From contig CAVVMJ010000003.1 in assembly GCA_963749445.1 (NCBI GenBank), forward strand, positions 128,715 through 192,714: DNA of 64,000 nt. The letters are read 5' to 3'. The position numbers and the translations under genes are program-made. Below, piece after piece: positions 10,801 through 63,826 of this stretch (its first letter is position 1; each line of letters opens with the position of its first letter). Under the pieces are notes generated by a model. That model was given only the letters and a program-made list of their open reading frames with translations. It was not told the origin of the DNA and searched no databases. The DNA comes from an uncultured bacterium. Its GTDB lineage: Bacteria > Patescibacteriota > Doudnabacteria > UBA920.

Positions 10801-11525
10801 TGGGGCACAGGCAAGCCGTCCATAGATGTAAAACCGCTCTGTACCAAGACGGTATAATGGCTGGAGCGGGAAAGGCGCGCTGTTGGCGTAAACTCCAGCG
10901 TCCGCGTAGTCGCCCACTTAAATTTTCCGGCTGTTTCCGGAATGATTTTAACGGGCAGGGGCTTGGACTCCTGAACATCCAGCGTGCTTAGCGGCACCAT
11001 GGGCCGGTTAAATTCAATGGTAATGGCATCGGTCTCCGGCGCTTCTGAACCGTCTTTGGGAAAAATCGCGCTAACCTCCGGGTCAACATCGGCCTGGAAA
11101 TTTTGCGCCAAATGCACATCGCCGGCGGCCAAACTGACTTGGTAGTATTTGCCCGACTCCAGTTTGGCTGCCGGCTTAAAGACCAATTCAGTCGCCTTGC
11201 TGCCCACAGACCAGGTTCCTAAAAGTTTTGGGTCAAAACTAATTGCATCCTTGGCCTGATCCGAAGTCAAGCTGACTCCGGGTGGTAAATTAATTACTAC
11301 TGCCGCGCTTTGGGAAATTTTGGCCGCCACCAAGCCCACCGGCTCATCCTGCCATTTGGGCTGAATACTTTTAACATAAAAATAATTATACCCCAGCCAT
11401 CCGGCCGCTGCCACAATTAACACAGCGGCCGTCAACATAACGCCGCGCCTGTGGTGTCGCTTTAGCTGCTGTTTGTCTATTTCTGTCTCCTGAACGGGTT
11501 TTGCCGGAGCATTGGTTTCGTCCAT
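4863..11525 (-). CDS. Bacterial alpha-2-macroglobulin family protein (2220 aa, N-terminal membrane anchor).
   Basis: Thioester motif YPYGCTEQ; N-terminal TM after a basic stretch; very long run of MG-like beta-rich sequence. Confidence 0.8.
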   Translation of the reverse strand: MDETNAPAKPVQETEIDKQQLKRHHRRGVMLTAAVLIVAAAGWLGYNYFYVKSIQPKWQDEPVGLVAAKISQSAAVVINLPPGVSLTSDQAKDAISFDPKLLGTWSVGSKATELVFKPAAKLESGKYYQVSLAAGDVHLAQNFQADVDPEVSAIFPKDGSEAPETDAITIEFNRPMVPLSTLDVQESKPLPVKIIPETAGKFKWATTRTLEFTPTARLSRSSHYTVLVQSGFTSMDGLPVPQAQAQFTTRPLRFAGNTIHHDGVTLYDEPVKIDFNQPVDLAKTTAQITVKNLATNNAVPFVTQYGTRGVSLGGAVNLTDYTDKSVVLIFAKADKFGRAKFWDNNSNYQVDISGAVPLEGDINLSEGRSAAVQVPDIVESVSASSSRSSLVEPTMFDPKGQLVLNFYEEIDKDRSQITAQNLDRVDYGQRCELDADGNEVYVDGQCKQVTDKKQLLVSFKDQNWQPGQSFDVELTKIFNAKGLQLNSDPIKESLQIFPQLKVLSTTPAPGEQAADVTRLIICTNSPLDDAQPENFYQRLKSNLSVGKWDWDVAYKVQTGSRSADEKCSPGQYDNRIRYGLIPQTEYQMQLNLVDQFGQSLSQNLNFTSGKIDSTYTDFNSLQKGYNVTSPGHTKLTYAATNLDYLDLHVCQVSSQTMLGYLDPDTQPDAGIAGSALDCQQTWTKRIDLPPKFWTLNYFQVQLSDIVPSPLGYYVLSFSNPQLRQQIYDYNTGKTRPGPPIYERTFLNVTNLAAQEKKVEVSDDTSSSPGTAAVQPERATERELLSSSQGNLYWVTQIGSLNAVEGATIQVFQKQDKKYLAFDTATTDSSGVARAKAYAGNGAAVIGKDNDSTIVSGYSDKFQWSSPYQGGDKTYIYSDRPIYRPGQEVDIKGLYRIGYDGVYEIYTGKTASLQIFSSKNEQVDTEDLAISKNGTFNTVFHLAADAPLGTYRVQAFDGIYTFDVEDYVPSPFKVDLKSDKAEYIAGDTANLSVDANYYFGVPVEGGSVDYTVTAQDYYFDRYQDQNFQFGAGWYYQPDAGYGDSFILRGKAQLNTQGHAQISQVLDFSKLFSIDNQNQSKIFVVDVTVTNTTGQAVSNEQSFIVHRGQFYLGVNLDKSYFGKNDANKILIKTVDTQGKELSVGNISGKVNKITWNYFKRQEVDGNYYYHSEKQVDTVQQFTAQTDSSGNFSKDFTVGQEGEYEVALTAADSRGNPITATQDFYVYGQGSVEVQPENNESLDLAVANNKLEVGQAGQVVIKSPYDHAKALIAVERGRILDYQIVDINQNFYNYTFDVKDAYVPNVFVTVLLLSPKPEVKFGQAQFFIDTKQKTLTVDVTPNKNNYLPGEQVTLDVVTKDVSGKPVPADVSLAVADLSVLALSGNPKKDPVSFFYDGRPLGVTTSSNIKNILTEAEIPTGTKGGGGAAPEDLASKKRGVFKDTAYWNADVQTGSDGHAQVSFTLPDNLTTWQAEGVGLTQDTKLGVGYKEFKAQKELMVTPLVPRFVIPGDSFALGGKIFNQTGSAQTLQVSFTSSSLQMPDNKPQTVTLNAGDTKTVYVKAVAPASQQDGQHTLNITAKNDKYQDSVDSSFPVTPDQTYEAVATSNYTTNQTANEYVWLPDNVIPDRGGVQIEAQATLAGVLPGALKYLVDYPYGCTEQMISKLTAVATVKRFVSLKNLGDKFKMPQVQFDNQTYSADDVVSIGLSRIMSNQNSDGGFSYYPGMKSDYYLTLDVLNALEDLRQAKYKIDDAAETRAVAYAYQTWTGDYNLNRSKDSLILTAYTFSRVPSASQQFAALQPQIQALANDPKFFNEDISNLSLVYLALLSSAKQSSTFGNQVFQTLENRVVVDGRGAYLTTGDQNLLWYYYETPVKDTALLLKAESLAQRQFSETDKMLRWLQNSRAKDGSWGSTDGTVTVMDALVDYLQWKGETESSFTLNLLLDTKPQANFTFNSQTILDSLQSFIPISSFTPNKLSVLQFNKQNLNDKTNGFYYDMTLKYFLPVNSIAPRDEGFAISRELYALDDTVNKTPLNQAKVGQVLRAHLTLTVSKPRNFVTVESFIPAGMELVNFNLATENQTLNQQYLTTPAYGYENAQAGQNVPTKTVQLKRPGFFTRSWLWIKGLFVRQSSTVPGTTAVADLPDEVYSGNLTTTDSLIPDSVEYHDDRLMLFNQNLQPGVYEYDYYVRALIPGQFQHLPAVASELYQPDHFGRTRGEIFTITQ

Positions 11526-13111: not shown

Positions 13112-16100
13112 CTAATTGTGAATCGACACAGTGTTAGTCGGGTAATTGACAATCAAGCTGCCGGAAAGGCCGCTGCCGGCGCCGTTTACATCGTTAAAAG
13201 TCAAAACACCGGCCGAGCCAGGGCTTAAGGACAGGCTCGCGGAATTTGCAGTTATCGCGGTAACCGGAATATAGATATCGTAAGTTTTGGAAGCTCCGGC
13301 CGCAATCGTATTGCCGCCATTAAAAGTCAAATTTAATGTTCCGCCGCTAGAATTGCCAAATACGCTGGAATTGGAAACAACTTGGCCGGTTGCGCTATCT
13401 ACGGCTGTTACCGCGTTGGTGGTACTGATTGTTGCGCCCGATACGGTAACGCTGATTGGCAAAGCGGTCAAAACAATGTTGCCGGAAGCGTTGGCATTGA
13501 CCACTACGGATGCGACTTTTACCGATCCTGTTGTTAGAGAACTGTTGGAAGCAACCAAACTTAAAGTTGGGTAAGAACCCACTACTTTCATAGTGTTGCT
13601 ATTAACATTGGCGGTTGCGGTTTGGGTAATGCCTCCAGATGAATATTTGATGGAACTTAAAGTAATATAGGACGTGTTCCCGGAAGGTATGCCGTTAGCT
13701 CCGACAGAAGCATAATTTACGGAAACAGGTATGTTTGCGCCCGCGTAGCCGGCCGGAATGGGAAGGTTTAATCCCGTAATCACGGCCGTGCCGCCCACCA
13801 CCGGAGCCGTCAAGTTGCTGACTAAAACTGAGGTAATGCCACTGCCGGAAACAGTGAACGTCAGTTGCTGGACGGTCACGGCAGAAGAAGCGGCGAGATT
13901 ATAGACCGCGATTGGCGCGCTCATTGAGCCGCCGACAATGAACTGCGAAACTGGCGACATCGCGCTGAGCGTGGCGCTCAATGACGTCGAAACTGCTCCC
14001 TGCACTGTTACCAACTGGCCTCCCAGGGGAATTATTGCCGGATAGGTTTGATTATTGACTGAGGATTGCGCGGTTATAGAACTTAAAGTAATAAAACTCT
14101 GATATTGGCCGGTAATGTTAGTGGGGCTAAATGTCACATCAACATAGATATTAAGATATATCGTCGCTTGGGGCGCTATTACCAAAGGATTCGTCGACAG
14201 ACTGAATGTGTAGGTATTGCCGTTGCTGGGACTCGGCACAGCAGAACTCAACTGAGTCGTGCCCGACATAAGCTTTAAATTCTGAAAATTACCCGTGACG
14301 TTACTATTGGAAGTTTGGAGGGTAATTTGTTTTACTAAAGCAGATTCATTATTACTGTTATTCTTTAAAGTAAACGCGGCAATCATCTGGTTTAAGTTAT
14401 TAGTGCTAACCTGGAGACTGTTAGAGCCGGTTGTGGCCGCAGTTAAACTTAAATTTGAAGTACTGCCGCACGTGCCGGCGATCTGGTCCAGCGGCGCGTT
14501 GCAGCCTTGCTGTTTCATCGACACCACGCCGACCTGGCTTAAGGCCTGCTCCGCGCTATTGGCCGCCACGACATTGGCAAAACTAAAACCCCAGGAATTA
14601 AAAATGGCAACGCTCGGAAAACCGTACAAGCCGTTTTGTCCAACCAACTGCACCGTGCCATTGTTGTTTATGATAGTGCCGGGACGAATAACCGCGGAAT
14701 CGCTGACTTTGACGTAGCTATTATTGCTCGACGTTCTTCCGGAAGAATCGGTAGCATAAACCATAATATTATAGATACCGGAACTCTGCCAAGTATGGCT
14801 GATGGTAAACGATAAACCTGTAGGCTTATCGTTGCCGGTTTGTTTTTGAGATCCATCTCCCCAATCTACGGTGTAAGAAATTGTATATCCTGCGGTAGTA
14901 CTCGGGTTGGCCACGGACATAACATAAAAACTGCTCACGCCCGACATTACGCTGGTCGGACCGGTAATAATCGGCGGGGTTAAAGCGGAAACGGTAGAAC
15001 CGCACGCGTTGTTAATTTGGCTTAAAGGATCGCTACAGCCGACCTGCTTCATCGGCACCGTGCCGATTTGGCTTAAGGCCTGCTCGGCGCTGTTGGCGGC
15101 CACTACCTGGCTAAAGCTCCAGCCCCAGGAATTAAAAGTCGCGATGTCCGGGATGCCGTACAAACCCTTGCTCCCCACCAAATAAACCGTGCCGCCGTTG
15201 GTAAACACCAGTTGGCCTATGCGGGCGCCGCTAATAGGTACAGCGGCAACTGAAAAATTCGCACTAGAACCAAAATTAACGGTAGCGCTGTTATCCCCAA
15301 CGCCAACAACACTTGCTGAATAATTTCCAGCCGCTCCGGAAGAAATATCCGCGCGGACGGCATAATAAACCGCCTGGCCATCCTTAATCAATTGCGGCGT
15401 AAATGAAAAGTCGTACTGAGTATTGTTATTTGAATTACCTGTAAAAACATTTTTTACCGCGGCAACAAAATTACCATTTTGATCGTAAAGCCCAACATTG
15501 GAAAATTGACCGGTAACGTCTCCCGGGCTAATGGCCACCGAATAATCTCCCAAGTTCAGACTTGTGCCGCTTAGTCCCACGCTGAACGTGAACAAATTAG
15601 CGCCGGTTGTGCCCGCAATTATTTTGCTAGCAGGTGAAACGGAAAAATTAACAGTTCCGATTTTAGTTGAGCCGCACATGCCGTTAATCTGGCTAATGGC
15701 ATCGCTGCAAGCCGGATTGCGGGAAGGCACCCAGGTGCCGGAAACCGGCAAGGCGGATTCGGCGGCATTGGTCGGCAGGACGTTGGCAAAAGACCAACCC
15801 CACGAATTAAATACCGCTACGCTCGGGATTGGATACAAAACACTCTGGCCAACTAAGTAAACGGTTTTATCAGTCTTATAAACCAACTGGCCAACGCGTG
15901 CGCTAACGGATGTTCCTAAAGTCACGGAAAAAATTTGGGCATTACTGGTACCATTAGCGTTAGTTACGACCACCGAATAGTCGCCAGGGATAACACTAAC
16001 TATGTACTGCGGGCAAGCCGTACCAACCGCGCAGTGCGGCGCTAAAGTTTCGGGAATGGTAAATTGCAAAGTTTTGCCGTCGCTGGAAGTTAAGTTGCTG

Positions 16101-18928
16101 GCCACTTGATAATTCCTCATGCTCACGTTGTTTCCGGTGGAAGCAAAACCGCTGCCGGAAACTGTCACCACAGTGCCCACCGGCCCGGATGCGGGATTTA
16201 ATGAGTTGATATTGACAACGCTGTTAGTCGGATTAACCAAACTAAAACTTTGACTGGTATCCGGGACGCCATAACAATGGGCCGGGTAACTATTAGTGCA
16301 CATTTGTGGCCCACTAATGGTCAGGGTATAGTTGCCAACTGACAGATTGTTGCTAATGGTCCAACTATAACTGCCGGTGTTGGGAGCGGTGGTGGTCAGA
16401 CTATAGTTGCCGGAAGCACCAGTTAAAACAATGCTTAATGGGTAACCACCGGTGGTACTCGCATCCCAGGTAATCATATGAATACTGCCAAGTGCCCACT
16501 GCTCGCCACCGGCCGGGGAAAAAATCTTGATTGAAGTGGAACTGGCGGCAGAAACTATGGTAAACGCACCGCTAGTGCCGCCTACTACATAAGTACAGAT
16601 GGTTCCACCATTATTAGCTGTACAATTATTTACCGGATATGAAACCGCCACCTTATAATAGTTTGACGCGCCCATTGTGCCGAATGTCGGACTTGCGATT
16701 GTCCAAGCATAAGATCCATTATTTGGAACATTGGATGCAATAACTTGATAATTAGTACATGCGCTTATCATGGCAGGGGTACAATCAGTACTGCTGACCA
16801 ACTCTATATTAACTGTGGGAGAAGCCGAGCTATTAGGTACCCAAGTAACTATATGGGTAGATCCAACCGCCCACTGTTCTCCACCGGCCGGGATAGTGAC
16901 GCTAACTGTCGATTGGGAAGAGCTGCACGTGCCGTTAATCTGACTAATGGCATCGCTACAGGACGGATTGCGGGAAGGCACCCAGGTGCCGGAAACCGGC
17001 AACGCGGCTTCTACGCTGTTGGCCGCGGATACTTGGCTGAATGTCCAGCCCCAGGAATTAAATACCGCTACGCTGGAAATCGGATACAAAACATTTGAGC
17101 CGACCAAGTAAACGGTTTTATCACTCTTAAAAACCAACTGGCCAGTACGAACACCAATGGTCGCTGACCCGTTTACAGTAATAGTAAAAGTATTGGTGCC
17201 AATGTTGCCGTTGGTGTCCACCGCTTTAAGTTGGAACGTATATGTGCCGGCCGTAGTCGGCGTGCCGGAAAGAGTGTAAGTGTTGTGATAATAAGCTGGG
17301 CAAGCGGCTCCCACCAGACAAGCCGGTATCGGATTTTGACTTAAAGACAAACCGGGAGGTAAATTACCGTCCGACGTCATTGTGTATTCCGCGTTGGATG
17401 GGGATATATTTAAAGTCGCCATATAATACTGCCCGACCGTAGCTGTAGACGACGGCCCAGCAATAGTAATCGTCTGGGTTGGAGAAATTGATTGAGTGAT
17501 AACAAACGGCGCATCGCTCTTGTCGTCCGAAATGCTGTGGTTATCCTGAATCCAAGCCTGATAATATCCCGACGGAATGGTATGGCCATAAGCATCATTG
17601 CCCTGAACCGTCCAGTTAAATGAACCGTTGTTGGGTTCATTAGATCCCAAGTTATACAAACCGTTGCCGCAGGAGCTGACGCTGGAATTGGCGCATGGAA
17701 TCAAATAAAGATGGATTAAATAGCTTGGATCGTCGCCGGTCCACTGGATATTTAAATTTGATCCCGTGACAAACTTCTCCCCGCCGTTCGGGCTTAAAAT
17801 TTTCAACAGGCCGGCCGCCGGAACCGGGTTAACGGTTATTGTGGCGGGAACCTGCCCTAAAACATTAAACGCATAACCGCCGCCAAAGGTGGCCACTATA
17901 TAATACGTGCCGGACGGCAAGTTACCGACTGTAGCGGTAAACATCCCGTTAAGCCCGTTTGGAGCGCTGCCCACAATCTGCGTAATGTAATTTGCAACAT
18001 CTTGCCGATAGGAAGGAACGGGGGTAGTTACGGCTGCCGGATACGAAACTCCGGTCGCGCTGTTTACTAATTTAATATTGATATTTAAATTGCCGCCATT
18101 ATTATAAGCCCAGCCGGAAACCATAACACTGCCCGGAGCCGTGGCGCTGTAAGAAGACATGGATTCCAGCCAGCCTTCTATTAAACTATTGCTGCCCTGG
18201 CCGTAATGCGGGGTGGTATAGCCGTAAGCCGGCGGAGGCGTTGGACAAACGATAATCTGGCAACCATTATTATCATATTTATCATAACAACCGTTCTGGG
18301 GAACTGCGGTCGGAACCGCACATGTCGGGCTTGGCTTGGCCGGAGCGGTAATATTTAAAGATGTCAGTTGCTGTAAGCGGCTGCCGATTTTTTTATATAA
18401 AATAAAAGTGTAGGTTTGGTTGGGCAACAAGTCATTGCCGGTATAGCCCGAGCCGGAACCGGTAATACCATCCATAAACGGCCAGCTGTTAACCTTTATG
18501 GCGCCGGTAATGCCGCCTTGCAGCTGATAATCAACCTTAACCTGCCAGCCGTTGCCGGAAAAACCGATAAGCTGATAAGTTAAACAGTTGACGGTATTGT
18601 AGCCGCACACGGGCTGGTTGTAGCCGTAAGTGGCCACGCCCAAAACCCGGGGGGTCTGGACGGTGGTATTAAACGCGCCGGCTAAAATGCCTTCTGCTCC
18701 GCCGGACAGTTCGGTTTGGGCAACCATGGTGAGCGCGCCGACTGAAGTGGCGGCAAACAGCACAAAAGCAATGGCCGTAATCGAGCTAATTTCCGCGTTA
18801 AAAATAGATCGCACAAAAGACCAGGTGCCGCTGGCTGTAGCGCTGGTTTGTTCCCGGGCTTGGCTTAAGTGCCTGCCGGAGATTGCGTATGGGTTCATGG
18901 AAAAACCTATTTCCGCGCAAACAGACAA
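13112..18928 (-). CDS. Giant Ser/Thr/Asn/Gly-rich cell-surface protein with tandem ~80-aa repeat modules and a PKD-like segment.
   Basis: N-terminal TM/signal; at least 4 copies of the module GQLVxKxDKTVYLVG...FNSWGWSFxxV...CSDxxSQINGxCGS; VDWGDGS (PKD-like); two modules are about 85-90% identical at DNA level (about 15670-15900 and 16925-17165). Confidence 0.7.
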   Translation of the reverse strand: MSVCAEIGFSMNPYAISGRHLSQAREQTSATASGTWSFVRSIFNAEISSITAIAFVLFAATSVGALTMVAQTELSGGAEGILAGAFNTTVQTPRVLGVATYGYNQPVCGYNTVNCLTYQLIGFSGNGWQVKVDYQLQGGITGAIKVNSWPFMDGITGSGSGYTGNDLLPNQTYTFILYKKIGSRLQQLTSLNITAPAKPSPTCAVPTAVPQNGCYDKYDNNGCQIIVCPTPPPAYGYTTPHYGQGSNSLIEGWLESMSSYSATAPGSVMVSGWAYNNGGNLNINIKLVNSATGVSYPAAVTTPVPSYRQDVANYITQIVGSAPNGLNGMFTATVGNLPSGTYYIVATFGGGYAFNVLGQVPATITVNPVPAAGLLKILSPNGGEKFVTGSNLNIQWTGDDPSYLIHLYLIPCANSSVSSCGNGLYNLGSNEPNNGSFNWTVQGNDAYGHTIPSGYYQAWIQDNHSISDDKSDAPFVITQSISPTQTITIAGPSSTATVGQYYMATLNISPSNAEYTMTSDGNLPPGLSLSQNPIPACLVGAACPAYYHNTYTLSGTPTTAGTYTFQLKAVDTNGNIGTNTFTITVNGSATIGVRTGQLVFKSDKTVYLVGSNVLYPISSVAVFNSWGWTFSQVSAANSVEAALPVSGTWVPSRNPSCSDAISQINGTCSSSQSTVSVTIPAGGEQWAVGSTHIVTWVPNSSASPTVNIELVSSTDCTPAMISACTNYQVIASNVPNNGSYAWTIASPTFGTMGASNYYKVAVSYPVNNCTANNGGTICTYVVGGTSGAFTIVSAASSTSIKIFSPAGGEQWALGSIHMITWDASTTGGYPLSIVLTGASGNYSLTTTAPNTGSYSWTISNNLSVGNYTLTISGPQMCTNSYPAHCYGVPDTSQSFSLVNPTNSVVNINSLNPASGPVGTVVTVSGSGFASTGNNVSMRNYQVASNLTSSDGKTLQFTIPETLAPHCAVGTACPQYIVSVIPGDYSVVVTNANGTSNAQIFSVTLGTSVSARVGQLVYKTDKTVYLVGQSVLYPIPSVAVFNSWGWSFANVLPTNAAESALPVSGTWVPSRNPACSDAISQINGMCGSTKIGTVNFSVSPASKIIAGTTGANLFTFSVGLSGTSLNLGDYSVAISPGDVTGQFSNVGLYDQNGNFVAAVKNVFTGNSNNNTQYDFSFTPQLIKDGQAVYYAVRADISSGAAGNYSASVVGVGDNSATVNFGSSANFSVAAVPISGARIGQLVFTNGGTVYLVGSKGLYGIPDIATFNSWGWSFSQVVAANSAEQALSQIGTVPMKQVGCSDPLSQINNACGSTVSALTPPIITGPTSVMSGVSSFYVMSVANPSTTAGYTISYTVDWGDGSQKQTGNDKPTGLSFTISHTWQSSGIYNIMVYATDSSGRTSSNNSYVKVSDSAVIRPGTIINNNGTVQLVGQNGLYGFPSVAIFNSWGFSFANVVAANSAEQALSQVGVVSMKQQGCNAPLDQIAGTCGSTSNLSLTAATTGSNSLQVSTNNLNQMIAAFTLKNNSNNESALVKQITLQTSNSNVTGNFQNLKLMSGTTQLSSAVPSPSNGNTYTFSLSTNPLVIAPQATIYLNIYVDVTFSPTNITGQYQSFITLSSITAQSSVNNQTYPAIIPLGGQLVTVQGAVSTSLSATLSAMSPVSQFIVGGSMSAPIAVYNLAASSAVTVQQLTFTVSGSGITSVLVSNLTAPVVGGTAVITGLNLPIPAGYAGANIPVSVNYASVGANGIPSGNTSYITLSSIKYSSGGITQTATANVNSNTMKVVGSYPTLSLVASNSSLTTGSVKVASVVVNANASGNIVLTALPISVTVSGATISTTNAVTAVDSATGQVVSNSSVFGNSSGGTLNLTFNGGNTIAAGASKTYDIYIPVTAITANSASLSLSPGSAGVLTFNDVNGAGSGLSGSLIVNYPTNTVSIHN

Positions 18929-19083
18929 GCCCTGATTTTGGAGCTTAGCGTTCGCGCTGTTTAATTTTATTTTTGTTTCGATCTTCGGCTGTTTTGGCCA
19001 AAGAAAAAGTTTTTAACTTCTGAATATATTATAGCACATTTAAAAAAATTTGTCCAGCGTATGCGGAAAAAATTATTACCTAT

Positions 19084-19172
19084 CATTGCGAGTGCAGCCG
19101 AAGCAATCTTATCCAAGCTCAAGAAAAAGATTACCGCGTCGGCCAGTTAAAGCCCTGGCCTCCTCGCAATGA
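19084..19172. repeat. Family-B palindromic element (copy B3).
   Basis: attgcgagtgcagccgaagcaatc ... ggcctcctcgcaatg; the first motif is identical to the one in copy B2. Confidence 0.6.
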
Positions 19173-19331
19173 CACTGATAATTGCCAAAATTTAATCAAA
19201 TAGAAAACCGCGCTCGCACATCATACCCAAAGGTACAATGCGCTCACGCGGCTTTCGAGCCTAAAGAGAAGAAGCTTCTGTCCGCCGAGGCGCTTTAGGC
19301 TAAGCGCGCGGCGGGGTTGGCCGATGATGGC

Positions 19332-25948: not shown

Positions 25949-26353
25949 ATGGATCGTATCCAACACATCAAGCTTACCAATATAAAACCGACGGCTGACA
26001 AAATCACAAAACAGCTTAAAGGCGGGGAAGTTTTGGCGCTTATAGGCCCGCTCGGCAGCGGTAAAACCGCCTTTGCTAAGGCCTTGGGCAAACAGCTTAA
26101 AATCCGACACAAAATAACCAGCCCGACGTTTACCTTAATGCATGTTTTTGCCGGACGATTGAAAAAAAATAAGCCGGTTGTGATGTACCATTTGGATCTC
26201 TACCGCACCAAAAATTATGCCGAGGTCAAAGCTTTAGGCATTACCAAACTCTGGGGCAAACCGCAAACCATTACCCTGATTGAATGGGCGGATAAAATTA
26301 AAAAACACTTACCCAAAAAAACCATTTATTTATATTTTTCTCACGAGCATTGA
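25949..26353 (+). CDS. tsaE: tRNA threonylcarbamoyladenosine biosynthesis protein TsaE.
   Basis: LIGPLGSGKTAFAKAL P-loop, followed by SPTFTL. Confidence 0.75.
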   Translation: MDRIQHIKLTNIKPTADKITKQLKGGEVLALIGPLGSGKTAFAKALGKQLKIRHKITSPTFTLMHVFAGRLKKNKPVVMYHLDLYRTKNYAEVKALGITKLWGKPQTITLIEWADKIKKHLPKKTIYLYFSHEH

Positions 26354-26451
26354 TGGGCATCTTCAAGCAGCTATTAAAGATCGATCAATATTTATTATTC
26401 GACGAATCAACCGCCACTAACTAAACCATATTCTCGAAGATGCCCATCAAC
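26350..26451. promoter_or_regulatory. Long-range inverted repeat (16-bp stem, about 66-nt loop) between tsaE and the VanW-like gene.
   Basis: ttgatgggcatcttcaag ... tcgaagatgcccatcaac. Confidence 0.4.
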
Positions 26452-28963: not shown

Positions 28964-29176
28964 ATGAACCTAAACGACCCCACCAACCTACTCGTAGCCG
29001 GCATCTACTATTTAGGCGCCGGAGTCTTAAGCCTGTTTTCCATTTTTGGCGTTTACCTGCTTATGCGCTACGGCAAATCCACCTTGCTCTCCTTTACCGT
29101 GAGCGTTTTTTACATTTTTATTTTTCTCTCGATCCTTGGCAGCTCCTACCAATCTTTACAAACCCTACTTCAGTAG
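28964..29176 (+). CDS. Small two-TM membrane protein (hypothetical). Its 3' end lies in repeat F2.
   Basis: Hydrophobic 70-aa ORF bracketed by the F1 and F2 repeats. Confidence 0.35.
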   Translation: MNLNDPTNLLVAGIYYLGAGVLSLFSIFGVYLLMRYGKSTLLSFTVSVFYIFIFLSILGSSYQSLQTLLQ

Positions 29177-29292
29177 TAAGTTATAGGGTATGGCAGCCAG
29201 TACGGTTATATGTAGTTGGTTATCAGTGGCTTATAACCTACAACCTATTACGCCACCGGCCGCTACAACCAATAACCTATTACCCTACTAAA
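29160..29292. repeat. Family-F/G palindromic element (copy F2).
   Basis: ccctacttcagtagtaagttatagggtatggcagccagtacgg...ccaccggccgctacaacc...ataacctattac; shares blocks with G1. Confidence 0.6.
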
Positions 29293-31825: not shown

Positions 31826-31950
31826 TTAGGCTGCGTTCTTGAGGGTCGCCCTCTGGCAAGGACTCCGTGATTTTAGAAACGATTGGTAAATATCAAAACA
31901 TTGCTTATTAAATGACCTTGGTTGTAGCCAGAGGGCGACCCTCAACCAAA
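31826..31950. other. Long hairpin (17-bp stem gagggtcgccctctggc, about 75-nt loop) in the intergenic region.
   Basis: ttgagggtcgccctctggcaagg ... gtagccagagggcgaccctcaacc. Confidence 0.4.
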
Positions 31951-36174: not shown

Positions 36175-36268
36175 GCAATTAACAAGATTGACATGAATGA
36201 ACAAGATTGACAAGATTGCCAACCCAAATTCATGTCAATCATTTAAATCATTTAAATCTTGTTCAATC
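36175..36268. repeat. Family-C AT-rich palindromic element with repeated TTGACA motifs (copy C1).
   Basis: caagattgacatgaatga acaagattgacaagattgccaac ... attcatgtcaatcatttaaatcatttaaatcttg. Confidence 0.65.
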
Positions 36269-40581: not shown

Positions 40582-41847
40582 CTAAATTGCTAGAGAAAGT
40601 ATAATCCAAAATACCATGGCCAAGTCGTTTTTAAAGTAGGGGTTGTCTACTTGGCCTTGGACTAATACTGCGATGAGGAAGAGGGCGATGGATAAGGCAA
40701 TTGTGCGGTTAAAATCTCCAACTACCCCGTCTCGCTTCGCAATCCACCCCTCCTTGGCAGGAGGGGAAGCTCCGCGAAGACCGCGGTAAAGGTAGAGTCC
40801 GATTAGCCCGATTAAACTTATTAGCCCGATTAGTCCGGTTTCCACCCAGAGGTCTAGGAAAATGTTGTGCGGGAAGTTGTGGGTGTCGGTGAGGCCGGGG
40901 TCGGTGTTAAGGGTTGTCCACTGGCGTGAAAAGCCGGTTAAGCCGAGTCCAAAAATCGGCGATTCTTTAACGCCTTTTATGCCGGTATCCCAAAGGGAAA
41001 AGCGGGAGACCGCGGACTTCTCACCGTAAAAAGGCAGGACAAAGCGCCAGCGGAGGTTGGGGATGCAAACGATAACGATAACCATAATGATAACGCCGGC
41101 AAAAATTATTTTGCGGATTTTTTTGTCCGCGGCAAATATCAGGTAAACCAAAACCGCGGCGCCAAGGCCGGCCCAGCCGGCGCGGGAGAGCGATAATAGT
41201 AATCCGGTAGCGCCGATTATCCAAGCAAACATCTTTATCCAATTTTTCCACCCCTCCCTAACCCTCCCCATCAAGGGGAGGGAAAAAGAAGAAAAAATAT
41301 CCGGAATCAAGAAGGCTAAAAGTGGGGCGCACCAGAGGGCGTAAAAGTTCGGGTGGATGAAGAAGCTTAAGGCGCGCTTGGGCTCGTTGCTGTTGCCCCA
41401 CCAAGCTGTCGGCAATCCGATTAATGTAAAGTACTGGAGAATTGCGTAGAGGCCGGTGACTGCGAGGAGAAAGTAAGTAGTTAGTAGTAAGTAGTTAGTA
41501 GCCCGCGGGTATTGCTTGATAATAAATCGGCCGATAAAAAATATAGAAACCGGCTGCAAAAATAACACAATAAACTGGCCGAGTTTGGCGCGGTCAAAGC
41601 CATGGACAAACAAGGAAATTATCCCGGACAGGAAAAACAGACCAACCAAAACCAGGATTTTTTTATCCAAACCCATCAGCGATTGCCAAAATTCCCGTAG
41701 TTGATGTTTGGCCAAAATCCACCCTAAAAAAATCACCCACACTAAAACTACCCACACCATTAAAACGTCTGGGGGAAAGCCAAAAACGTTAAATTTAATA
41801 ACGTAGGTCGGCGTTAGCAGTAAAGTTAGGGCAAGAAGATAAGGCAT
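40582..41847 (-). CDS. O-antigen ligase-like (Wzy_C/WaaL family) polytopic membrane protein. Carries in-frame GC-rich hairpin inserts.
   Basis: LLLSLSRAGWAGLGAAVLV (Wzy_C motif). Hairpins cccctccttggcaggagggg (40773-40815) and ccctccccatcaaggggaggg (41250-41285) fall within loops. Confidence 0.6.
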   Translation of the reverse strand: MPYLLALTLLLTPTYVIKFNVFGFPPDVLMVWVVLVWVIFLGWILAKHQLREFWQSLMGLDKKILVLVGLFFLSGIISLFVHGFDRAKLGQFIVLFLQPVSIFFIGRFIIKQYPRATNYLLLTTYFLLAVTGLYAILQYFTLIGLPTAWWGNSNEPKRALSFFIHPNFYALWCAPLLAFLIPDIFSSFSLPLMGRVREGWKNWIKMFAWIIGATGLLLSLSRAGWAGLGAAVLVYLIFAADKKIRKIIFAGVIIMVIVIVCIPNLRWRFVLPFYGEKSAVSRFSLWDTGIKGVKESPIFGLGLTGFSRQWTTLNTDPGLTDTHNFPHNIFLDLWVETGLIGLISLIGLIGLYLYRGLRGASPPAKEGWIAKRDGVVGDFNRTIALSIALFLIAVLVQGQVDNPYFKNDLAMVFWIILSLAI

Positions 41848-41857
41848 AGTTATTGAG

Positions 41858-41950
41858 CAAGATTTAAAAGATTTAAATGATTGACATGATTAAGAGTTGG
41901 CAATCTTGTCAATTTTGTCATTCATGTCAATCTTGTCAATCAATTTAGGG
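41858..41950. repeat. Family-C palindromic element (copy C2, inverted relative to C1), filling the WaaL-like gene's upstream spacer.
   Basis: Reverse complement reads acaagattgacatgaatgacaaaattgacaagattgccaac...catgtcaatcatttaaatcttttaaatcttg. Confidence 0.65.
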
Positions 41951-46936: not shown

Positions 46937-47000
46937 ACCACCTCCCCCCGCTTCGCGGGGTACTCCTCCTTGAAAAGGAGGAGAGACTCCGCGGTTTTGT
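46937..47000. repeat. Family-A element (copy A2), intergenic.
   Basis: cacctccccccgcttcgcggggtactcctccttgaaaaggaggagagactccgcggtttt. Confidence 0.7.
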
Positions 47001-47723: not shown

Positions 47724-47764
47724 AGATATTGGATGTGCTGATGGTTATTGATGTGTTTGGTATA

Positions 47765-47818
47765 GAGGCACGCCGTGGCGTGCCTGATTGTCGGCATGCC
47801 AAGGCATGCCGCTACAGT
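47765..47818. repeat. Family-I tandem-hairpin element (copy I1).
   Basis: ggcacgccgtggcgtgcc + ggcatgccaaggcatgcc; an inverted copy lies at 60480-60545. Confidence 0.6.
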
Positions 47819-48571
47819 TTATTTAAACGATACCAAAACCGTAACTTCGCCTTTTATTGATGGTTTTTCTTTAAGTTTTTCCAAAACTTCGCCCGCGGAG
47901 CCGCGGATGAATTCTTCGTGCATTTTGGTGAGTTCGCGCGCAACAACGACTTGCGATCTCGGATAAGCGTTGGTAACGTATCCCAAAGTTTTTAAAATCC
48001 GTTCCGGGGATTCGTAAAAAATTGCCGTGGCTTCAGCATCGGCCGCTGCTTGCAAAGCCGATAAAGTTTTGGCCGCGGTTTTTTGCAAAAATCCCAAAAA
48101 CATGAACCGGTCGGTCGGCAGGCCGGAAGCCGAGAGCGCGGCAACGGCGGCATTGGCCCCCGGGATGGGAACCACTTGAATATTTTCTTTGGCGCATTCC
48201 CGTACTAATCTGAATCCCGGATCGGAAATCCCCGGCGTCCCTGCGTCGGTGATTAAGCATCCATCTTCTTTTTTTAGTCTTCGCGCAAGTTCTTTGACGA
48301 TTTGCTGTTCGTTGAATTCCGCAAATTGGACAATAGGTTTAGCTGAAATTGCGAGGAGTGCAGCCGACGAAGCAATCCCGTTCTTATTTGGGATTGTCGC
48401 GCCCTCGGCTGCACTCGGGCTCGCAATTTCCAAATGCTCGATGTATTGCAATAGCCTTCTGCTGTACCCCGGGTTTTCGGCCATCACAAAACCACACGCC
48501 TTTAAAGTTTCAACGGCGCGCAGGGTAATGTCTCCCATGTTGCCTATCGGAGTTGCTACTATGTAGAGCAT
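47819..48571 (-). CDS. rsmI: 16S rRNA 2'-O-methyltransferase RsmI, with a ~29-aa in-frame insertion encoded by repeat B1.
   Basis: MLYIVATPIGNMGDITLRAVETL and DAGTPGISDPG; extra segment EIASPSAAEGATIPNKNGIASSAALLAIS relative to the typical RsmI layout. Confidence 0.8.
   Translation of the reverse strand: MLYIVATPIGNMGDITLRAVETLKACGFVMAENPGYSRRLLQYIEHLEIASPSAAEGATIPNKNGIASSAALLAISAKPIVQFAEFNEQQIVKELARRLKKEDGCLITDAGTPGISDPGFRLVRECAKENIQVVPIPGANAAVAALSASGLPTDRFMFLGFLQKTAAKTLSALQAAADAEATAIFYESPERILKTLGYVTNAYPRSQVVVARELTKMHEEFIRGSAGEVLEKLKEKPSIKGEVTVLVSFK
48345..48430. repeat. Family-B palindromic element (copy B1) inside the rsmI coding sequence.
   Basis: gaaattgcgaggagtgcagccgacgaagcaatccc...gggattg...tcggctgcactcgggctcgcaatttc; a near-perfect hairpin. 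Confidence 0.7.
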
Positions 48572-48579
48572 GGAGTGTA

Positions 48580-48690
48580 TTTGGTTATAGGGTGTGGCGG
48601 CCGGTACAGTATTAGGGTTTGGGTATTAAGTCACTTACACCCAAAGACCTACAACTACACTGGCCGCTATACCTTATAACCTATTACAGA
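48580..48690. repeat. Family-F/G palindromic element (copy G1).
   Basis: ggttatagggtgtggcggccggtacagtattagggtttgggtattaagtcacttaca...ctacactggccgctatacc; about 80% identity to the inverted copy G2. Confidence 0.65.
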
Positions 48691-48962: not shown

Positions 48963-49118
48963 TTACCCGCCTAAATTTTGCCCTAAAAATTGGGCAAGAT
49001 TAATTATTTAGATAACGGTTGTTAATCAAAAGTTTTAGATTCCACGCTGCAAAATTTCGGCAGGTTAGTCTATTCTACTAAAATAATTATGCAGCATTTT
49101 TTCAATCTGGTTCCGTCC

Positions 49119-49325
49119 CTACCCGGTTTTTAGCCATTGTTCCCGCACAAAGGCATCATGTTTGTCTAAAAAAGCTTCGTAATATATTAAACGGAAAGGT
49201 TTCCTGTTCTTTGTTGATTCTATACCACCTTTATTATGTAATGCAAATCGCTGCTTTAGGTTATTTGTACAGCCGATATATAGCCTGGTATCTTTTAAAC
49301 TTTGTAAGATATATACATAGTGCAT
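49119..49325 (-). CDS. GIY-YIG nuclease family protein (YhbQ-like), possibly C-terminally truncated.
   Basis: YVYILQS...LYIGCTNNLKQRFALH. Confidence 0.55.
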   Translation of the reverse strand: MHYVYILQSLKDTRLYIGCTNNLKQRFALHNKGGIESTKNRKPFRLIYYEAFLDKHDAFVREQWLKTG

Positions 49326-49798
49326 AAGCTAACTTATTTTATCGCAAATTTTGCCCGGCGACAAATTAACCCGCCGAAACTTTACGATGGATTTGTGGAA
49401 GCGAGGGAGAGTTAACAAATTTTTGATGCGGGTTTACCCACCGAAACTTTGCACAATTTATTAAAATTATTTGGTTGTTCAGACAAAATTATCTACTTAG
49501 ACTACCTAAACAACCCTCGCAAAGTTTAGGTGGGTAAAGTAAAAACCCCAATCTTGATAGCCCGCCCCGTCAGGGGAATTTGGGCATTGAAAGGGGTCTT
49601 TAAGAAAAGCTAGAAGAAGCTTGTGAGCTATAAGAAGTATCGAAATAAGCCTTATAGCCAACCGCCCTAAAAGTAGGGGTGGTAATCCCGATTTATCGGG
49701 ACAATTGGTTGATAAATTGTTTTTGTTTTTGTTTCTTCTTATGAAGAACTCACTTTTCTATAGGTATTATAGCAGATTTTTTGGAGGTTGTCTAGAGG

Positions 49799-51540: not shown

Positions 51541-51650
51541 GTAATTGGTTATTGGGTTTGGCGGCCAGTATGGGTGTAGGTTTTTGGTTGTAAGTGACTT
51601 AATACCAAAACCTTAAGACCGTACAGGCCGCCACACCTTATACCCTAAGA
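51541..51650. repeat. Family-F/G element (copy G2, inverted).
   Basis: Reverse complement reads tataaggtgtggcggcctgtacggtcttaaggttttggtattaagtcacttaca... Confidence 0.65.
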
Positions 51651-52370
51651 CTTTTTAAAGATTTTTAATAGAGGGTAATATAAGTCTTTCTTTGGTTCAA
51701 TCACCAGCTTGCGATGGGTGCTGTGATTGGTAAACTTGATAAATTTCGCGCCGCGCAAAACCATCATCGGGGTTTTTTCGTTCCCCTCCCCCATCAGCAA
51801 GACAGCCATGTTGGATATGCTGTCCACGATGTTGCTTTGGGTGTATTTTAACTTGCGGCCGAAAATATCTTTTTTGCCGCGGTAGTCAAATAATGGCTCT
51901 AATCCGAAAAACCCTATGGATATCCCCTGCGTCCCCCACCGAAGCGGTGTGGTGTGGCTGTCGGTAATTGCCACCGCAAGTTTTTTTATTTTAAACTTCT
52001 TTTTTAAATATTTACAAATTTTTTTGGCCGCCTGGGTGGAATTCTTTGGCCAAAGGATGTCGTAGCCATTGCCGTTGCTCTCGTCAATCCCGGCTGAAGG
52101 AATTAGGGTGTAATCTTTAATTGTCAAAACTATATCCAATCCGTTAAGCACCCTTTTTGGCAGCGAATAATCCGCCTCTTGTTTTATAAGTTTTAGTTTT
52201 TCCCGATGATCATCTAATTTAACACAACGTCCTTGATGTATGGCCAAAATTTTGGACGTAACAAACAAAACGTCACCTTCTTTTAAGTGCGGCAGATGTT
52301 TGTCCATCAACCCAAAAATATCATCCTTGGGCGGTAAAAACTCCCGGGTTTTTATTGGCATAAATTGCAT
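51645..52370 (-). CDS. CofE-like (F420-0:gamma-glutamyl ligase family) protein.
   Basis: The SAGIDESNGNG motif and its length. Confidence 0.45.
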   Translation of the reverse strand: MQFMPIKTREFLPPKDDIFGLMDKHLPHLKEGDVLFVTSKILAIHQGRCVKLDDHREKLKLIKQEADYSLPKRVLNGLDIVLTIKDYTLIPSAGIDESNGNGYDILWPKNSTQAAKKICKYLKKKFKIKKLAVAITDSHTTPLRWGTQGISIGFFGLEPLFDYRGKKDIFGRKLKYTQSNIVDSISNMAVLLMGEGNEKTPMMVLRGAKFIKFTNHSTHRKLVIEPKKDLYYPLLKIFKKS

Positions 52371-52432: not shown

Positions 52433-52507
52433 GGGCGCATAGCTCAGCGGTAGAGCAATCGTCTTATACACGATCGGCCCTAGGTTCGAATCCTAGTGCG
52501 CCCACCA
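52433..52507 (+). tRNA. tRNA with anticodon UAU (Ile, AUA-decoding), with encoded CCA.
   Basis: Cloverleaf folded by hand: acceptor gggcgca/tgcgccc, D arm gctc-agcggta-gagc, anticodon arm atcgt-cTTATac-acgat, T arm ctagg-ttcgaat-cctag. A terminator hairpin follows at 52511-52540. Confidence 0.8.
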
Positions 52508-55323: not shown

Positions 55324-55336
55324 AAGGGAATTGAGC

Positions 55337-55445
55337 AAAATTAAATAAAATTGACATAATTGAACATAATTGACGAATTTATAATCTGCGGTTTGGCAAT
55401 TATGGCAATTATTTAAATTATGTCAATTTTGTCATTTCTTGTAAT
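55337..55445. repeat. Family-C-like AT-rich palindromic element (copy C3).
   Basis: attgacataattgaacataattgacgaattt...ttggcaattatggcaattatttaaattatgtcaattttgtcat. Confidence 0.55.
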
Positions 55446-57029: not shown

Positions 57030-57118
57030 GAAATTGCGAGGAGCCCCGACTGCATCGGAGGGGCGACGTGGCAATCCCTTAATCAGTGGGATTGCTTCGG
57101 CTGCACTCGCAATTTCAC
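57030..57118. repeat. Family-B palindromic element (copy B2) upstream of rpsA.
   Basis: gaaattgcgaggag...gcaatccc...gggattgcttcggctgcactcgcaatttcac. Confidence 0.7.
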
Positions 57119-60479: not shown

Positions 60480-60545
60480 TTCTTGTAGTGGCATGCCGGG
60501 GCATGCTGTTTTCTGTCCAGGCACGCCACGGCGTGCCTCTACGTG
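60480..60545. repeat. Family-I tandem-hairpin element (copy I2).
   Basis: ggcatgccggggcatgc...ggcacgccacggcgtgcc. Confidence 0.6.
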
Positions 60546-63445: not shown

Positions 63446-63826
63446 AGACAAGACTAAATTAATTAATGTGAACAAAAAAACGCGATTCAAATTGAATCCG
63501 TTTACAATTAACCCGCCAAAAATTTTTGTGGCTGAGTTGAAGCAGTCAGTTTTATCGAATCATTGTTCAAATTTTTATTAATTTTGTCTGGAGAAAAAAA
63601 TTTTAGGCGGGTAAAATTAAGCCATTGAATTGACTTGCTGCTTGGGATGAAATAGTCGTGCGGATAATTGTTCTGGTCACCTTTCCGGAGTTAATAAAAC
63701 ATTAAGCCTAATTTACATTAAACGGTTGGGTTTGTCAAATAGTTTTTAAACCTTTTTACTATTTGTAAGGAATAAAAAATATTTGATAAAATTGCAGTAT
63801 ACATCATTAGCACCAAAGTATGGGAA

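Follow-up and report, generated by a model that had tools for sequence, protein, structure and literature searches.

The 64,000-nucleotide (nt) stretch of DNA analyzed here (the window) comes from an uncultured bacterium of the Doudnabacteria lineage of the Patescibacteriota (contig CAVVMJ010000003.1) and carries an 86-nt palindromic repeat, B1, inside rsmI, the gene of a 16S rRNA methyltransferase. With a probability of roughly 0.78, B1 is a selfish or neutral palindromic repeat, an inverted dimer of repetitive extragenic palindromic (REP) units resembling dRS3 and NTS, which entered, or was inherited within, the codons of a surface loop of RsmI and is translated as a 29-residue extension. 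The repeat family, termed family B, the in-frame state of its member in rsmI and its absence from many relatives are directly visible, and the loop position is seen in a predicted structure model. In-frame palindromic repeats of the REP type or of the Rickettsia palindromic element (RPE) type are a known phenomenon; here the lineage is new and the unit divergent. What is added is the occupancy of one loop by several repeat families in two orientations across many species, a parallel in a Wzy_C gene and a formal resemblance to NTS. The coordinates of the main features are collected in Table 1.

B1 is a near-perfect palindrome whose 11-nt termini GAAATTGCGAG and CTCGCAATTTC are perfect inverted repeats and whose arms are nested, the plus strand reading, in order, GAAATTGCGAG GAGTGCAGCCGAC GAAGCAATCCC GTTCTTATTT GGGATTG TCGC GCCCTCGGCTGCACTCGGGC TCGCAATTTC. 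A long hairpin at this place had been noticed in a preliminary description of the DNA and was confirmed by RNA folding: either strand forms one long hairpin, with -52.8 kcal/mol for the gene strand and -55.3 kcal/mol for the plus strand, whereas dinucleotide shuffles give -29 and -32 (z = -6.8 and -6.5) and not one out of 200 was as stable. A hairpin like this lies well outside what chance would give. The element pairs two units in inverted orientation, each with the plan (T)GTC/GAA-ATTGCGAG-spacer-GAAGCAATC. In the left unit the tag GAA (GTC in most relatives) is followed by ATTGCGAG, the spacer GAGTGCAGCCGAC, GAAGCAATC and CC, with a 5-bp ATTGC/GCAAT stem and then a conserved C. The right unit, read as its reverse complement, is GAAATTGCGAG-CCCGAGTGCAGCCGAGGGCGCGA-CAATCCC, and an additional GCCC...GGGC clamp in its longer spacer makes B1 asymmetric. 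The orientation with the short-spacer unit first is taken as canonical and lies antisense to rsmI. Columns A4 T5 T6 G7 and G28 C29 T32 C33 of the unit are invariant in the alignment. Covariance model R1, which has B1 among its training sequences, scored 89 bits on the plus strand and 47 bits on the minus strand, and an Rfam search with the whole window at the gathering threshold and with the element at E <= 1 matched only a tRNA.

The rsmI open reading frame (ORF), assigned by TIGR00096 with 212 bits against a cutoff of 167.9 and matched also by PF00590, stays intact through B1, which encodes residues 48-76. The gene strand specifies the peptide EIASPSAAEGATIPNKNGIASSAALLAIS, exactly as given in the preliminary description, and the RsmI proteins of relatives without the insert measure 221-222 amino acids (aa), a net gain of 29 residues or 87 nt. 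The notion of a frame-neutral 86-nt element has to be amended accordingly: the reading frame is intact, but 86 is not a multiple of three and the in-frame unit is 87 nt, made of the palindrome and one flanking base. B1 is open in five of its six reading frames. When the protein is compared to the solved structure of E. coli RsmI, the alignment covers residues 1-43 and 83-247, and in between query residues 44-82 are matched by no more than residues 46-54 of the crystal chain, leaving about 30 extra residues in the window protein. An intein, an intron, excision at the RNA level and translational bypass were considered and rejected, being incompatible with a 29-residue, always in-frame and stop-free segment.

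The structural context was predicted with AlphaFold on the basis of a 91-sequence alignment (mean predicted local distance difference test score, pLDDT, 75; predicted template modelling score, pTM, 0.53). In the model, which matches the RsmI structures 3KWP, 5HW4 and 9PZG at E values of about 1e-20, helix 34-45 is followed by a segment with block-mean pLDDT of 44-48 (residues 55-70 below 50) and then by strand 80-82. The insert, which the preliminary description had suggested modelling, is thus predicted to form a disordered loop, modelled with low confidence, that links a helix to a strand and is compatible with the fold. E. coli native numbering equals the window residue plus 12, as derived from the TPIGN motif with T19/N23 (PMC13037946) and from the alignment to E. 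coli RsmI. On this scale the insert falls between N59 and A60, at the far end of the helix that starts after E44/D45/T46/R47 and ahead of the strand leading to H68. In the E. coli enzyme E44/D45/T46/R47 make Mg and h44 contacts, and the loop residues are not among the rRNA contacts listed (PMC13037946). The RsmI loop presumably points away from the 30S subunit.

The extent to which this loop is filled was assessed in the 120 nearest RsmI homologues, which share 65-82% BLASTP identity with the window protein. While 48 of them have 221-228 aa, the other 72 have 233-276 aa, and all surplus length, 18-55 residues, resides at one position. Among 46 Doudnabacteria-like species representatives the loop is filled in 17 and empty in 29, and it is empty in E. 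coli RsmI and in all six deep outgroups; the extra residues are therefore not conserved in distant RsmI proteins, a check proposed in the preliminary description. Empty genes read ...EH(I/V)GAWP directly followed by KE(M/V)VQFAE, and filled ones ...QYIDxL(P/S), the insert and KKE(I/V)VQFAE. At the DNA level all of the approximately 30 filled loci examined keep the frame and contain no stop. The insert is not specific to this genome: orthologous copies in the same orientation exist in four related loci (L001, L081, L161 and L162) and some insert is present in the 72 longer homologues, so that either the event was inherited or the site is a recurrent hotspot.

The rsmI inserts come from at least four repeat families. 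Family (i), to which the window copy belongs, has the ends GTCATTGCGAG...CTCGCAATGAC and encodes VIA(R/S)...DEAI...KIAS..LAMT or (V/E)IASP.A.EGA.I...IASS.ALLA(M/I)(T/S); the length of every rsmI copy is 2 modulo 3, and all are read in the frame GTC-ATT-GCG. Family (ii), GTCATTCCG(A/G)...C(C/T)GGGATGAC, encodes VIPSASEES...GMT, family (iii), CCATTCCCGCGAAAGCGGGAATCC..., occurs in L004 and L086, and family (iv), CCCCTCTC...GGAGGGGG, in L009, L084 and L089. Most inserts fold as strong hairpins, with energies ranging from -54 to -13 kcal/mol, and those of L003, L005, L017, L010 and L013 no longer fold, a continuum that is expected if hairpins decay after insertion. The rsmI copy of the closest relative (L001:10142-10260) has gained an extra 33-nt GC-rich hairpin (CCCGCCTCGCCGAAGACGGCGAGTCGGGGCGG), which is nested in one arm and adds 11 residues in-frame.

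These data bear on the view that the hairpin is a selected functional element, either a control structure of the rsmI mRNA or a peptide loop that aids 30S binding. The near-perfect hairpin of the window would fit this view, as would compensatory differences between orthologues (GCAGC/GCTGC in the window, GCATC/GATGC in L081) and the lack, in Doudnabacteria-like RsmI, of the C-terminal domain that the E. coli enzyme requires. However, about 40-60% of the close relatives do without any insert, and where one is present its sequence, length, family and orientation vary and many of the hairpins have decayed. The same repeats are intergenic elsewhere, Rfam offers no match and the insert is predicted to be disordered, all of which makes a selected function very improbable. 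The preliminary description had further called the methyltransferase essential, which is not established; knockouts of rsmI in E. coli are viable. An artefact of assembly or binning, in which a repeat-induced mis-join placed an intergenic repeat in rsmI, might be feared with a metagenome-assembled source and with repeats, which are prone to mis-assembly. Its probability is negligible, since dozens of assemblies, produced independently by different projects, have inserts at exactly this site, on contigs of up to 949 kb and with the frame always preserved.

Family B is represented by three copies in the 64-kb window and by about 30 related elements detected with model R1 in 1.27 Mb of related DNA; the further copies asked for in the preliminary description are thus found both in the window and in the DNA of other species. 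The 18 clear relatives collected comprise the three copies in the window, inserts from 12 other rsmI loci and the intergenic copies of L014, L024 and L082, and 17 of them make up alignment A2. Their common plan starts with a (T)GTC tag and ATTGCGAG; a spacer that varies leads to GAAGCAATC(Y)(Y), and a loop of about 10-25 nt separates this unit from its inverted copy. An 11-bp outer stem and a 7-9-bp inner stem are almost invariant across copies, and the variation lies in the middle. GAA takes the place of the GTC tag in B1 and B2. One arm usually has a longer spacer with a GSCC...GGSC or GCCCC...GGGGC clamp, and the resulting asymmetric palindrome gives each copy an orientation. In a sister variant (L028:11418) ATTCC...GGAAT replaces ATTGC...GCAAT around the same spacer core, a change on both sides that keeps the 5-bp stem. 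The 5' flanks of the copies are pyrimidine-rich (YCT) and the 3' flanks usually begin with AC(A).

Of the two intergenic copies of the window, B2 has the termini GAAATT...AATTTC, as B1 does, and a GCCCC...GGGGC side hairpin in its right unit; it does lie upstream of an rpsA-like gene, as previously described. B3 is identical to an intergenic copy of another species (L024:8128-8213) at 79 of 92 positions. The GC-rich island at whose border it was said to lie is not pronounced, with a GC content of 0.50 compared to 0.47. The shared 24-mer of the preliminary description, ATTGCGAGTGCAGCCGAAGCAATC, is exact in B3 and B2, at 19085(+) and 57090(-), with 0 occurrences expected by chance, but it is not verbatim in the rsmI copy, where GAG and C are inserted (ATTGCGAGgagTGCAGCCGAcGAAGCAATC). 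The termini ATTGCGAG/CTCGCAAT are confined, within the window, to the three element copies. A gapless hairpin scan of 883 kb of related DNA gave a rough indication that hairpins of this sort are mostly intergenic, although the scan missed most bulged inserts and produced spurious 'genic' matches on wrong-strand ORFs. A terminus-pair match at L082:8796, first called genic, proved to be intergenic, between yebC and ruvC.

Orientation and phylogeny provide information on the number of events. The plus strand of B1, antisense to rsmI, aligns with the sense strand of the inserts in L083, L163, L164 and L165, and the 25-mer GAGGAGTGCAGCCGACGAAGCAATC is common to the window and L083. Those of L001, L081, L161, L162 and L002 align as reverse complements, as does the window insert. 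The strand scores of the covariance model lie about 25-50 bits apart in the directions of the alignment, a result that attests consistency rather than an independent test, these being training sequences. The same element is therefore present in both orientations at one codon position of RsmI, which implies independent insertions or inversion in situ. Bootstrapped neighbour-joining trees were built from RsmI alone and from RsmI, with the insert region removed, together with YebC and RuvC. They were star-like with few supported nodes, and conclusions were drawn only from nodes with at least 95% bootstrap. In the combined tree the filled L023 falls within an empty clade (98% with L040 and L011, 95% once L008 is added), and L009 with a family (iv) insert and L006 with a family (ii) insert are sisters with 100% bootstrap. 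Empty proteins are among the nearest homologues of the window protein, with 87-88% identity compared to 86% for the best filled one. More than one event at the RsmI site is concluded from these data.

Repeated independent insertions would not be needed if a single ancient insertion in the ancestor of the 'QYIDxL' sub-lineage had been inherited vertically and then diversified by arm inversion, 3n indels, nested insertions, gene conversion from other copies and precise or nearly precise losses. The flanking residues, which track the state of the loop (QYIDxL(P/S)...KKE if filled, EH(I/V)GAWPKE if empty), agree with such a history, and so do the orientation and boundaries that the window has in common with L001, L081, L161 and L162, the nested 33-nt hairpin of L001 as a change in situ and the majority of tree nodes, which are without support. 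Against it, the filled L023, nested at 95-98% among empty species with normal AWP/TWP flanks, would demand several exact reversions. The unrelated families in the sisters L009 and L006, the empty proteins among the closest homologues of the window and two more loops with the same multi-family pattern in the Wzy_C gene described below are likewise difficult to accommodate, and a single insertion appears rather unlikely.

In the preferred reading, a family-B repeat would have been inserted into, or inherited in, the codons of the RsmI surface loop at N59/A60. Arrival may have occurred via an insertion or recombination process that depends on single-strand hairpins. The insert would persist since its length with the flanking base is a multiple of three, the frame in use is free of stops and the loop tolerates disordered residues. 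The loop might be used again, either on account of a resident repeat that attracts more repeats or as the only permissive loop, or for both reasons, and hairpins would decay after insertion into a continuum from perfect to unrecognisable. From the in-frame length, the lack of stops and the permissive loop it follows that B1 would be translated as a 29-residue loop extension. As to the earlier proposal that the element is mobile or proliferative, the further copies elsewhere support proliferation, and mobility is something we infer.

Among the closest known repeat systems, RPEs resemble family B in behaviour. These in-frame inserts (Ogata et al. 2000 and 2002, as summarised in PMC10969869 and PMC3733652) are, like family B, short palindromic multi-copy repeats that lie in-frame in conserved housekeeping genes and are translated as an extra peptide where the fold tolerates it, and the host is in both cases a small-genome, host-dependent bacterium. 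The hosts differ, with Patescibacteria here and Alphaproteobacteria there, and so does the length, 86 nt compared to about 100-150 nt for RPE-1. The relation to RPEs runs only via the description of the CGTC-tagged REP class (PMC3733652). In the definition of Di Nocera et al. 2013, each unit of the CGTC REPs has a terminal tag (CGTC, often TGTC, or CCTC), a stem of 8-9 bp whose first two pairs are A-T, a 4-5-nt loop and a short tail. Most units are paired as inverted dimers, which can adopt a single large stem-loop and which add 20-30 residues where they lie within genes; Neisseria dRS3 is a member, as are RPE-4 and RPE-6 of Rickettsia (PMC3733652). The class has been reported from five phyla, Patescibacteria not included (PMC3733652). 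The tag agrees in part, with TGTC in 15 of 18 copies across species but TGAA in B1 and B2 and TATC in B3. Family B shares a palindrome starting with A-T, a tail beginning with C and inverted dimers folding as one stem-loop. Its intragenic dimer codes for 29 residues, and a dedicated transposase is known neither for the CGTC REPs (PMC3733652) nor for family B. The preliminary description rightly saw a proliferative palindrome and missed this link to the CGTC/TGTC-tagged REPs (dRS3/NTS, RPE).

A second comparison concerns the Neisseria NTS (CGTCATTCCCGCGMAVGCGGGAATCYRG), a repeat that SsnA, a GIY-YIG protein of 94 aa (cd10448), binds and cleaves exclusively when it is single-stranded. The three bases ahead of the palindrome matter for cutting and the C behind it for binding (Chenal et al. 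2025, PMC11893778). The ssn genes are typically bracketed by their own repeats, repeat-rich genomes include Rickettsia and Wolbachia, and NTS are rarely genic, with 2% in N. meningitidis (PMC11893778). Family B resembles NTS in the frame GTC-ATT...AAT-C and in the dimer arrangement; true NTS-like motifs occur in the same rsmI loop of sister species, and a small single-domain GIY-YIG gene with flanking hairpin repeats lies beside rsmI. Family B differs in failing the published SRM pattern, and the GIY-YIG gene next to rsmI is not intact and has repeats of another family on its two sides. Miniature inverted-repeat transposable elements (Correia/NEMIS, ERIC, Nezha) are similarly small and hairpin-forming, with terminal inverted repeats, a non-coding origin and occasional in-frame fusions. 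Here, in contrast, target-site duplications are absent, a parent insertion sequence whose ends match was not found in the 64-kb window, where transposases were not screened, and the whole element rather than its termini alone is palindromic and made of two REP-like units. The family-B element hence behaves like an RPE and in form is related, if divergently, to the CGTC/NTS class; it is not a member by published definitions. A literature search for such repeats in Patescibacteria and the candidate phyla radiation returned nothing relevant.

Several points weigh against the reading of B1 as a dRS3/NTS-like repeat translated within RsmI. No direct repeat flanks any of the 18 copies, as a target-site duplication would, and no transposase was found, the window ORFs not having been screened for transposases. 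The insertion event has not been observed directly, and translation is deduced from frame conservation rather than from peptides. The structure model is only of medium quality, and the poor resolution of the gene phylogeny leaves room for one ancient insertion with turnover in situ. With its 5-bp stem (ATTGC/GCAAT) and an interior of 13-30 nt that is often itself a hairpin, family B lies outside the 8-9 bp and 4-5 nt of the CGTC REPs. Finally, the SRM pattern HGTCWYN(0-2)YYVSBRHN(0-5)WNVSBRGN(0-2)RNCYNB has 0 matches in the window, where 0.24 are expected.

A more specific proposal holds that Ssn-type nucleases, single-domain GIY-YIG enzymes acting on single-stranded DNA, use family-B repeats as substrates and that the spread of the repeats, their turnover and the hotspot depend on Ssn. 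Each strand of the dimer would present one (GTC)-palindrome-C unit, and cuts placed a few nucleotides upstream of it in both strands could release or nick the element. The unit layout is that of NTS, and both the base triplet ahead of the palindrome and the C that follows it are conserved in the 17-sequence alignment. Strict SRM/NTS motifs exist in Doudnabacteria-like DNA, including the rsmI inserts of L020 and L035, and the insert of L004 contains CCATTCCCGCGAAAGCGGGAATCCAG. About 640 nt upstream of rsmI lies the GIY-YIG ORF, whose Tyr5, Tyr16 and Glu62 have about the spacing of SsnA Y6, Y17 and E64. It is bracketed by hairpin repeats of about 100 nt (48965-49065 and 49433-49538) with TTTACCCRCC.AAA.TTTGC ends, in an arrangement like NTS-ssnA-NTS that recurs upstream of rsmI in L082, and a third copy of the flanking hairpin is at 63508-63615. 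However, the ORF is interrupted by an in-frame TAG where intact homologues of L082, L097 and L117 have Trp, the flanking hairpins belong to a family other than family B, and the window is devoid of SRM matches. The nearest solved relatives of the ORF are UPF0213-type proteins, with membership in cd10448 being putative, and Ssn enzymes are known to cut single-stranded DNA and to modulate transformation, not to transpose repeats (PMC11893778). Dependence on Ssn is accordingly doubtful.

The behaviour of the RsmI loop is paralleled in the O-antigen-ligase-like Wzy_C gene of the window. Two of its loops, one after LIPD.. and the other after YRGLR, hold inserts from several hairpin families, or none, across related species. 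In the window they read SPPAKEGWIAKRDGVVG and SLPLMGRVREGW and are made of small CCCCTCC/GGAGGGG hairpins. A loop of L004 reads VIPDSDPGSRILDSRFRGND and includes a strict SRM, and one of L018 reads VIPAATEPRSGEG...AGFRGND, with L018:12143 being a true in-frame insert. Judged by their sequences, the Wzy_C loops appear to be a second and a third hotspot like that of rsmI; apart from these loops, the hairpin repeats found were intergenic. It is conceivable, if tentative, that permissive loops such as RsmI N59/A60 and the two of Wzy_C serve as recurrent landing pads in which dRS3/NTS-like families insert, flip, nest and replace one another, and that Ssn nucleases or recombination with resident repeats may drive the process. 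To our knowledge, no account of RPEs describes one loop occupied by different families and orientations across species.

Rickettsia is the best-known source of in-frame palindromic repeats, and how they spread has been unclear for 25 years. The present case is an example of the phenomenon from the candidate phyla radiation, with one codon position that dozens of species show in a dense series of states, from empty and filled to flipped, nested and decayed. Such a series makes it testable how the repeats move, why they accumulate at the same site and how proteins absorb them. If the landing-pad proposal is true, selfish hairpin repeats would be a regular source of lineage-specific diversity of protein loops in reduced genomes, and the NTS/Ssn system would be connected with the long-unexplained in-frame RPEs. 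Inserts of this kind also inflate and fragment Patescibacteria protein families in metagenomes and can mislead alignment, annotation and phylogeny.

Table 1. Position, strand and supporting evidence of the main features of the window.
Feature	Position	Strand	Evidence or remark
Family-B element B1, palindromic repeat dimer in-frame within rsmI	48345..48430	+ (canonical orientation)	fold, alignment, covariance model R1
B1 left unit, tag GAA	48345..48379	+	sequence, alignment
B1 central loop GTTCTTATTT, variable in sequence and length among copies	48380..48389	+	fold, alignment
B1 right unit, inverted left unit with longer spacer	48390..48430	+	sequence, alignment
B2, intergenic, 40 nt upstream of S1-domain (rpsA-like) gene	57030..57116	-	DNA fold z = -5.5
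B3, intergenic, termini ATCATTGCGAG...CTCGCAATGAC	19082..19173	+	DNA fold z = -3.7
rsmI, 16S rRNA (cytidine1402-2'-O)-methyltransferase, 250 aa	47819..48571	-	TIGR00096, PF00590
Wzy_C (O-antigen-ligase-like) gene	40582-41847	-	two variable loops near 40713-40770 and 41255-41300
Single-domain GIY-YIG ORF	49068-49325	-	PF01541, 55 bits

The closest public sequences come from metagenome-assembled genomes that carry the label Candidatus Doudnabacteria or Patescibacteria, and CAVYGQ010000001.1 has the best RsmI match, with 82% identity. The gene order 92-aa ORF, rsmI, yebC, ruvC is kept in relatives. The RsmI proteins of the window and of all Doudnabacteria-like homologues (221 aa minus insert) stop at the end of the E. 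coli core domain; the C-terminal domain that they lack is needed for activity in E. coli, where its deletion abolishes activity (PMC13037946). A palindromic repeat of 111 nt is found at 29173-29283, 48577-48687 and 51541-51651, its second copy spanning the gap between the 92-aa ORF and the start of rsmI, and a terminator-like 24-mer is intergenic at 47763-47786, just downstream of rsmI, and at 60518-60541. Small genes of the 23S_rRNA_IVP family (PF05635), absent from the window, are present in L161:2336-2713, L162:3796-4161 and L164:5659-6027. Their position among rsmI, yebC and ruvC varies in some relatives, and they look like another mobile passenger of the rsmI neighbourhood.

Further hairpin repeats are scattered over the window. 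A 60-nt double-hairpin repeat (CCCCGCTTCGCGGGG and CTCCTCC..GGAGGAG) has two intergenic copies with 92% identity at 764-823 and 46937-46996, one of them between yebC and ruvC, and a partial match with 75% identity lies within Wzy_C (40713-40756). The window repeats at 1859-1957 and 26350-26450 include a small intergenic hairpin-repeat family TTGATGGGMATCTTC...GAAGATKCCCATCAA, the intergenic hairpin repeat at 31839-31945 has perfect 19-nt arms TTGAGGGTCGCCCTCTGGC, and AT-rich intergenic repeats are located at 36178-36268, 41852-41945 and 55329-55430. Two giant ORFs on the minus strand encode 2220 aa (4863-11525) and 1938 aa (13112-18928), the latter with internal direct repeats of 200-225 nt (14466-15200 and 15669-17144). 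The window also harbours a tRNA-Ile with anticodon TAT at 52433-52507 (+), an uncommon bacterial means of reading AUA.

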